Source: a virus. From it: DNA of 64,000 bases. A program made the translations under genes and the position numbers. The notes under the pieces are model-generated. The model was not told where the DNA came from. It searched no databases and worked only from the letters and a program-made list of their open reading frames with translations. Positions 1 through 64,000 of the stretch are shown one piece after another. Where the stretch lies: the IMG/VR virus record IMGVR_UViG_3300009105_000002, positions 1 to 64,000 of that record, one strand, 5' to 3'. The stretch's first letter is position 1, and every line of letters starts with the position of its first letter.

Positions 1-1
1 G

Positions 2-76
2 ATATTTGCTTCACGATATAAATTATATTTACCGACAGAAGAAGAATTAATCAGAGAGCTTAAAAGACAACGTTAA
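2..76 (+). CDS. 3' end of YhcG/DUF1016-like PD-(D/E)XK nuclease-domain protein (partial)
   Basis: Frame 2 reads IFASRYKLYLPTEEELIRELKRQR*, resembling the C-terminus of DUF1016/YhcG proteins. Confidence 0.7.
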   Translation: MFASRYKLYLPTEEELIRELKRQR

Positions 77-83
77 TCAAAAA

Positions 84-372
84 CTTGCACCACCAGTGCA
101 AGAAATTATATATAACCTATTGTAGAATTCCCAGACAATGTCTGGGAATTTATCAACCCCAGAGGTTTATATCGACCCCTGATTGTGGGTTCTAGGGGGT
201 CGATGGGGTTTGTAGGGGGTGTGAATATAGCCCTGTAGGGGAGAGGCATAACTTGCCAATCTAGTAATAATCCTGCCATAAGGGCCTGAAAGGGGCCTAA
301 TTAAGCCTAATAGACGCATAGAGACAGTTTCCTATGATGGACTAACATGTGGAGATGGAAACAGTCTCTATG
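84..372. repeat. Cluster of inverted repeats
   Basis: CTTGCAC/GTGCAAG 84-102; perfect AATTCCCAGACA-A-TGTCTGGGAATT 126-150; ATCGACCCC/GGGGTCGAT about 171-203; CATAGAGACAGTTTCC/GGAAACAGTCTCTATG 317-372 (one mismatch). Confidence 0.85.
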
Positions 373-384
373 AGCAAAATAGTG

Positions 385-393
385 TTATCCACA
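385..393 (+). promoter_or_regulatory. DnaA box, 76 bp before left dif-like site
   Basis: Perfect TTATCCACA. Confidence 0.7.
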
Positions 394-460
394 GGGTTTT
401 CACAAATAGCTGTAAGTCGTTGAGCCATATATACTTGCGGCAGTTTAATTTATATAGGCA

Positions 461-488
461 AGTTAACATAAGATACATTTTAAAAAGT
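461..488 (-). other. dif: dif-like XerC/XerD site, left boundary of prophage 1
   Basis: Minus strand ACTTTTTAAAA-TGTATC-TTATGTTAACT; XerD arm 10/11 and centre 5/6 identical to E. coli dif (GGTGCGCATAA-TGTATA-TTATGTTAAAT); XerC arm divergent. Confidence 0.85.
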
Positions 489-42478: not shown

Positions 42479-42663
42479 GAGCAGGGCTTTTTTATTTGTG
42501 AAATGAGAGAGGACCGTAAAAGAGTCTTTAGAAACTGAATGGGTAGCGCCGAGAAGGCAGTACGGAGATTAAGCCGTCAGGAGTAGGCCGCAAGGTCGAT
42601 TAAAACCGTAAGGGCTACAAAGCAAGGGCAAAATAGCTTGCTTGGCGTGACTTGGGTAAAGTG

Positions 42664-42672
42664 TTATCCACA
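42664..42672 (+). promoter_or_regulatory. DnaA box, 76 bp before right dif-like site
   Basis: Perfect TTATCCACA. Confidence 0.7.
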
Positions 42673-42739
42673 CGATTCTAACAATATATCGTAACTTGTT
42701 GAAAGACTTACAGTTACGCATATATTTTTTAAATACCCA

Positions 42740-42767
42740 AGTTAACATAAGATACATTATAGGCGGT
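42740..42767 (-). other. dif: dif-like XerC/XerD site at junction of prophages 1 and 2
   Basis: Minus strand ACCGCCTATAA-TGTATC-TTATGTTAACT with canonical inner ATAA/TTAT symmetry. Confidence 0.9.
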
Positions 42768-42779
42768 TCGGACATACCA

Positions 42780-42808
42780 ATATTACCACAAGCCTTTATG
42801 TTTGTCAA
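42780..42808 (-). promoter_or_regulatory. Sigma70-type promoter reading leftward across dif
   Basis: TTGACA-17-TAATAT with TG extension. Confidence 0.7.
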
Positions 42809-63996: not shown

Positions 63997-64000
63997 GCTA

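Follow-up and report, generated by a model that had tools for sequence, protein, structure and literature searches.

Positions 381-488 of the window (the whole stretch of DNA analyzed here, the first 64 kb of a 95,319-bp IMG/VR record) appear to be the XerD-side half of an Omnitrophota dif site, which now serves as attL of a prophage, and the ~90-bp flank next to it is probably a docking platform for proteins that act on XerCD/FtsK. Judged from its sequence conservation in the phylum, this module is a real, selected cis-element, which we regard as a putative variant of Xer accessory architecture. It offers a 110-bp substrate that is directly testable.

Two integrase-less prophages at a chromosomal dif site

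The record consists of two integrase-less tailed prophages (42 and 52 kb), designated A and B, which are stacked at the chromosomal dif of an Omnitrophota host. Neither tyrosine nor serine recombinases (PF00589, PF00239) were matched anywhere in the 95-kb record, and the sites bounding the prophages are dif-like and have a common centre. In these respects the prophages are similar to IMEXs (CTXphi, VGJphi, TLCphi and the gonococcal island), which also lack an integrase, have dif-like bounds, regenerate one functional dif upon integration and form tandem arrays. In contrast to known IMEXs, the elements observed here are two tailed prophages of the above sizes, and the attP of prophage A extends past the 28-bp core into a copy of ~90 bp of host flank; a TLCphi-like lack of the XerD arm was seen in prophage B only. 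It appears that a Xer-dependent lifestyle is possible for large tailed phages.

The window opens with the host chromosome flank located left of the module (positions 1-380, plus strand). This flank was matched by blastn to left flanks of dif in other Omnitrophota genomes, and the segments involved were 79-231 and 377-460. Based on these matches, positions 1-460 are host DNA and site 1 carries the host copy of the module. The nearest host module was 79% identical to this copy. A metagenome scan for the empty site of the window's own host recovered related species only, which contributed two more unoccupied dif loci (84% and 79% identical). Segment 79-231 contains a G/C hairpin element (CGACCCC...GGGGTCG) that matches several Omnitrophota loci, including three places in L021, and is probably a dispersed repeat.

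Site 1 (461-488, plus strand) is attL of prophage A and is composed of the XerD arm (461-471), the centre GATACA (472-477) and the XerC-side arm TTTTAAAAAGT (478-488). Its XerD arm and centre are the same as those of site 2; the degenerate right arm TTTTAAAAAGT, which is unlike the host consensus TTATAGGCGNT, is phage-derived. Prophage A is a complete tailed prophage spanning 489-42739. Its body (489-42647, plus strand) encodes a cell-wall hydrolase, a PD-(D/E)XK exonuclease, RecT, a ParB-like protein, a methylase, the large terminase, portal, capsid and tape measure. In the interval from site 1 to the first prophage A gene, a strong hairpin resembling a terminator (13 pairs and a T-run) is present at 521-560. 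The body is followed by a phage-borne module (42648-42739, plus strand), with a DnaA box at 42664-42672 and a palindrome at 42691-42717, and then by site 2 (42740-42767, plus strand), which is located between prophages A and B and contains the XerD arm, GATACA and the XerC arm TTATAGGCGGT.

Prophage B is unrelated to prophage A and has its own terminase and RecT. It occupies the minus strand from 42768 to the end of the window at 64000 and continues to ~95,191 of the record. At its far end, site 3 (record 95,192-95,219) contains the centre GATACA, a host-type XerC arm and the right flank, with the XerD arm replaced by ...TATCTGTCAA; neither a DnaA box nor the module was found at this site. Thus, the attP of prophage B mimics the XerC half of dif only. 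Because site 1 has no good XerC arm and site 3 has no XerD arm, site 2 is the sole complete 28-bp dif of the record. At site 2, the good XerC arm is prophage B DNA, and the ~40 nt past it (window 42757-42800) resemble, by eye, the conserved dif right flank of the clade (GCGGTTnGG ... TTTAT), a likeness that is the mirror image of the left-flank copy in prophage A. Prophage B also contains an extra perfect XerD arm (record 70,130-70,157, minus strand) in the opposite orientation and with the centre CAAATA, and no DnaA module was found upstream of this arm. In addition, an IMG/VR contig (L005) and a genome contig (L022) have in common a different, box-less left flank that abuts an intact dif, and this flank is probably the right end of another family of Xer-dependent elements in Omnitrophota.

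Sequence motifs of the module

The sequence AGTGTTATCCACA occurs at 381-393 and 42660-42672. In the host copy it consists of an AGTG lead-in and a perfect DnaA box, TTATCCACA (385-393, plus strand), and just two such boxes are present in the 64-kb window, compared with a shuffle mean of 0.55. Two copies of AGTTAACATAAGATACATT, at 461-479 and 42740-42758, were found versus a shuffle mean of 0.01. As stated in the original prediction, which was made from the window alone, the start of the DnaA box is 76 nt ahead of the XerD arm at both sites (385 versus 461; 42664 versus 42740). Equal spacing of the two copies proves little by itself, because they are homologous. An IHF-like TAA-N4-TTGA was indeed present where expected (413-423 and 42692-42702), and the bases between the motifs had diverged, with the 80-nt flanks of the two sites being only 62.5% identical.

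Palindromes that start 49 nt ahead of the arm had also been described at both sites. Their starting points (412 and 42691) were confirmed, but the copy at site 1 is imperfect: GTAAGT-N15-ACTTGC (412-438, plus strand) has five of the six pairs and one G.T, and when G.T pairs are allowed it extends to GCTGTAAGT/ACTTGCGGC. The site 2 counterpart is GTAACT-N15-AGTTAC. Within the site 1 palindrome, TAA-N4-TTGA is located at -48 relative to the arm and its inverted partner at approximately -26. A second DnaA-box-like 9-mer with one mismatch, GTTTTCACA (396-404, plus strand), starts 11 nt past the first box. It is a clade-specific feature that is present in L040 as well and is not kept phylum-wide.

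Conservation of the module in Omnitrophota

We scanned the genomes of 401 Omnitrophota species, sampled from the phylum, with the pattern TTWTNCACA-N57..77-AGTTAACATAA, in which 21 gap lengths were allowed. The combination of DnaA box and XerD arm was detected in 88 genomes, with one match in each, and a reversed-pattern control gave no matches in the 401 genomes. The gap between box and arm was 67 nt in 70 sequences, 68 nt in 17, 66 nt in 7, 65 nt in 5, 69 nt in 4 and 77 nt in 1. The proposal that both motif and spacing are under selection therefore gained support, as the register of box, YAA-N4-TT and XerD arm is found in 88 of the 401 species with diverged spacers. A pattern search had been suggested for related genomes as well as for phage contigs; it was productive in the former, whereas in IMG/VR no further viral contig with the module was detected.

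When 44 loci were aligned on the XerD arm, the DnaA-box 9-mer fell into one column in most of them, and so did TAAC at -48. Among the 41 species loci with enough left flank, a strict box was present at the fixed offset in 28 and a box with one mismatch in 3 more, and 10 loci with an exact dif had no recognizable box. In ~27 kb of adjoining flank we found 1 strict box; the background was 0.07 boxes per kb. The box occurs as TTATCCACA, TTATTCACA, TTTTCCACA or TTTTACACA, and this variation is confined to positions 3 and 5, which are left free by the consensus TTWTNCACA. The surroundings of dnaA contained 6 and 7 boxes within 3.5 kb in L070 and L072, respectively. No DnaA box was found within 300 bp of dif in E. 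coli. The dif loci that lack a box, together with the box-less flank next to an intact dif in L005/L022, indicate that the module is not indispensable in cis.

Chance, or shared ancestry without constraint, would agree with the homology of the two copies in the window, but it is extremely improbable as an explanation of the 104 distinct module sequences, in which 28 positions and two distances were kept while the spacers diverged, and of a reversed control that remained empty. It is refuted by the pattern scan, the gap distribution and the presence of strict boxes in 28 of 41 loci versus one in ~27 kb. The module occurs once per genome, at the host's own chromosomal dif, and is not phage-specific.

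Host dif and Xer machinery

An exact 24-mer, comprising the arm, the centre and the start of the XerC arm, was found in 44 species genomes, almost all of them labeled Candidatus Omnitrophota. In the 104 module sequences, a 6-nt centre and then a TTATAGGAAGT-like arm come after the XerD arm almost without exception, and AGTTAACATAA-N6-TTATAGG(A/C)(A/G)NT describes nearly all of them, i.e., a 28-bp site with the 11-6-11 organization of dif. The commonest form of dif in Omnitrophota is AGTTAACATAA GATATA TTATAGGAAGT. The two arms of the site are different and resemble those of B. subtilis and E. coli dif. There is one exact dif site per genome. All 13 Omnitrophota genomes examined for Xer-type recombinases had two of them, and the FtsK gamma domain was detected in all 31 examined for it. 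With FtsK gamma present throughout the phylum, there is no gap in the canonical activation pathway that would call for a new factor.

In three long contigs, ~97% of long ORFs aim at dif from either side. The strand bias was extreme, e.g., 42 of 43 and 129 of 133 long ORFs were aimed at dif (G005:C2, G002:C16 and G004:C4; L050-L069). We also considered raw GC skew, which flips at dif, as proof of the terminus, but dropped it when the flip vanished at four-fold sites, where the skew showed no consistent flip. Thus, the raw GC-skew flip is a coding-strand effect, there is no visible skew from replication-linked mutation, and the tentative assignment of the terminus rests on gene orientation. In a near-complete single contig of 1.55 Mb (G147:C1), dif is at 894,588 and dnaA at 1,087,257, only ~193 kb apart, and in another genome (G159) the dnaA-dif distance is ~947 kb.

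The genes adjoining dif converge and differ between genomes, and for these reasons a role of the module as regulator of a conserved neighbor gene was rejected. Of 44 species loci, 10 (L010, L011, L014, L017, L024, L031, L032, L038, L039 and L044) had a gene coding for a DUF134 helix-turn-helix protein at 100-750 nt on the right side of dif. All 10 belong to the clade with a ...GGAAGT/GGACGT XerC arm, and none to the clade of the window.

Architecture of the flank

The IHF core WATCAANNNNTTR was read as YAA-N4-TTG on the opposite strand. YAA-N4-TT was exact at the fixed offset in 73 of 104 sequences, and the flanking ATW part of the IHF consensus was not conserved. Among these 73 sequences, the motif was located 28 nt from the start of the box in 66 and 48 nt from the XerD arm in 60. 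Numbered from the arm, the conserved positions are -76 to -68 and a G at -67 in the box region, with CA at -58/-57; TAAC at -48 to -45, TT at -41/-40, A at -32 and TTA at -26 to -24 in the middle; and a T-rich stretch at -18 to -15 and A.AT at -9 to -6 close to the arm. This conservation pattern is that of predicted phased protein-binding sites. One or two DNABII genes were present in each of 21 Omnitrophota genomes, and none of them scored above the cut-off of the IhfA model.

In most clades, two direct repeats ((A/G)GTAAG followed by AGTAA(A/G), with a 10-bp period) are located just upstream of the box, at about -106 to -88 from the XerD arm (L075-L148); they are absent in the clade of the window. 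We considered them as FtsK-guiding, KOPS-like sequences, but the counts on the two strands were even (51 versus 53 and 66 versus 71), and GTAAG words without strand skew are not KOPS-like motifs.

A quite different possibility is that the flank encodes a small RNA, or that it is a promoter or a transcription terminator by which dif is shielded. In its favor, the folds of single sequences were slightly more stable than those of shuffles (mean z = -1.3), a T-run comes after AGCCATA-N6-TATGGCT in one clade, and a TTGAAA-16-TATATT match is present at site 2. However, there was no Rfam match, RNAalifold revealed no consensus pairs on either strand, and pairs in the fixed register were 40-60% complementary, barely above shifted controls; the palindrome is kept as a sequence (TAA.../...TTA) and not as a covarying stem. 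Neither a promoter nor a terminator is common to the two copies in the window, and the neighboring genes are convergent and vary between genomes. We therefore consider this explanation very unlikely. A DnaA-dependent replication origin was also rejected, since there is one box per module and the 95-kb record contains 7 relaxed boxes, which corresponds to background density, with no cluster.

Possible function of the module and relation to known systems

To our knowledge, chromosomal dif is regarded as a bare 28-bp site with FtsK as its sole regulator, and we know of Xer accessory DNA for plasmid sites only. Full-text literature searches returned no description of the flanks of dif in Omnitrophota or of a DnaA box linked to dif. 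The plasmid Xer sites, ColE1 cer (ArgR/PepA) and pSC101 psi (ArcA/PepA), are similar to the Omnitrophota site in that a core is accompanied, at a fixed distance, by a conserved flank that binds proteins or, in Omnitrophota, is predicted to do so. However, the accessory DNA of cer and psi is on the XerC side and is ~180 bp long, whereas the Omnitrophota flank is on the XerD side and comprises ~90 bp, which places it outside the cer/psi type. The recognized motifs are also different (ArgR or ArcA boxes in cer/psi, and a DnaA box plus an IHF-like core in Omnitrophota), and, unlike the plasmid sites, the Omnitrophota site is chromosomal and its host has kept FtsK gamma.

The flank contains three elements that might serve as binding sites: a canonical DnaA box of the high-affinity type at -76; the IHF-like core YAA-N4-TT(G) at -48, accompanied by an inverted TTA at -26; and a T-rich/ATAT stretch abutting the arm. 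The proteins docking there would most likely be DnaA and a DNABII-type bending protein, both of which are candidates by motif. Once bound, they would have a defined geometry relative to the adjacent XerD and would influence, in cis, the recombination of dif by XerCD/FtsK. The nucleoprotein complex would touch the Xer/FtsK machinery on the XerD side, and it could stimulate, restrain or time recombination. In E. coli, it is from the XerD side that FtsK activates recombination (PMC2800217, PMC3130261).

A more specific version of this mechanism, in which DnaA, brought into position by a DNA bend of the DNABII type, assists XerCD-dif recombination as an accessory factor in Omnitrophota and possibly in other phyla, is tentative, and we consider it possible but clearly less probable than a docking function as such. 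If true, the replication initiator would, for the first time, be connected in cis with the resolution of chromosome dimers, and its state would be coupled to this process or to completion of the replication cycle.

The main rival explanation is that the module is a functional host element independent of Xer, such as a terminus-anchored DnaA-regulatory or chromosome-organizing site in the spirit of datA/DARS or of a terminus boundary, and that the phage copy hitch-hiked when attP originated. We consider this rather unlikely, although several observations agree with it. Pairs of a DnaA box and an IHF site are a hallmark of DnaA-regulatory loci of E. coli. Most clades have (A/G)GTAAG repeats ahead of the box that look like protein sites, the DUF134 gene adjoins dif in some loci and codes for a DNA-binding protein, and some dif sites have no box.

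The spacing between the strong box of the module and its IHF-like core resembles that at the left end of E. coli oriC, where the R1 box (GTTATCCACAG type) is ~28 nt from an IHF-type core. In contrast to oriC, datA and DARS2, the module has just one box, which is neither clustered nor accompanied by an unwinding element or an adjoining dnaA, and it is located next to dif, where two gene-orientation blocks converge. Against the rival explanation, a solitary box is far from a cluster of the datA or DARS type. The phage copy corresponds to exactly the module and retains 25 of its 28 conserved positions. Finally, the distance to the arm is kept to +/-2 nt while the spacer drifts, which would be difficult to account for if the module were not physically coupled to the dif complex. 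For these reasons we favor a docking platform that acts on XerCD/FtsK.

The module copy of prophage A

The right end of prophage A is homologous to host flanks over 42648-42739 only, a segment that corresponds exactly to the module. Thus, the attP of this prophage is made up of the module followed by the XerD arm, the centre and a poor XerC arm. Prophage A copies far more than the recombinase core, and this bears on site choice by the phage and on host viability. The phage copy is 62.5% identical to that of site 1, and its nearest host module (L028) is 71% identical. Compared with the phylum consensus, it agrees at 25 of 28 strongly conserved positions and at 27 of 52 others, and the host copy gave equal values. 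When sites 1 and 2 were compared directly with the box excluded, they agreed at 14 of 20 conserved and 28 of 52 other positions, a difference that is not significant (p = 0.29). For the phage copy, there is modest sequence evidence of selection, and this copy could be a relic of captured host DNA.

Integration would occur by recombination at the centre between the attP of prophage A and the host dif. With a poor XerC arm in attP, the left junction is crippled (site 1, with the host module and no XerC arm) and the right junction is complete (site 2). Because the module of site 2 is phage-borne, integration rebuilds an intact dif together with its module. A parallel is provided by integrase phages whose attP restores a tRNA gene at its 3' end, as in both cases the phage brings a replacement for the displaced host sequence. 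The case of prophage A differs in that a non-coding flank of the recombination site is replaced and the recombinase is that of the host. If DnaA is an accessory factor as suggested above, Xer-exploiting tailed phages would copy an accessory region in order to recombine with, or rebuild, the host site.

The original prediction had assigned the module to phage att sites, as an accessory device that may gate integration and excision of the prophage. In its favor, both junctions of prophage A carry the module as a direct repeat with identical spacing. Directly repeated accessory sequences favor deletion at plasmid cer/psi sites; there and in prophage A alike, the DNA to be deleted lies between directly repeated copies. 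This assignment was not supported, as the module proved to be a feature of the host chromosomal dif, present once per genome in 88 species with no second copy, and its left copy in the window is host DNA. Among the phages it was found in prophage A only: prophage B and the L005/L022 element, which is IMEX-like, are devoid of it, and so are 37 viral loci encoding relatives of RecT, in which no dif-like site was detected within 6 kb. Pattern scans of IMG/VR revealed the module in no other viral contig, leaving one phage known to have it, and a search for relatives of prophage A via its hydrolase and right-end protein returned nothing useful. We consider a role as phage att-site device improbable.

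A looser scan of IMG/VR yielded mainly chance matches, plus one unrelated phage family (e.g., L160, L168, L172, L176, L179, L183, L194, L206 and L207). Members of this family have a non-coding region with ~3 to 6 DnaA boxes in roughly 300 bp, which is probably a DnaA-dependent origin, and one of these boxes is located, by coincidence, 66 nt ahead of AGTTAACATAA.
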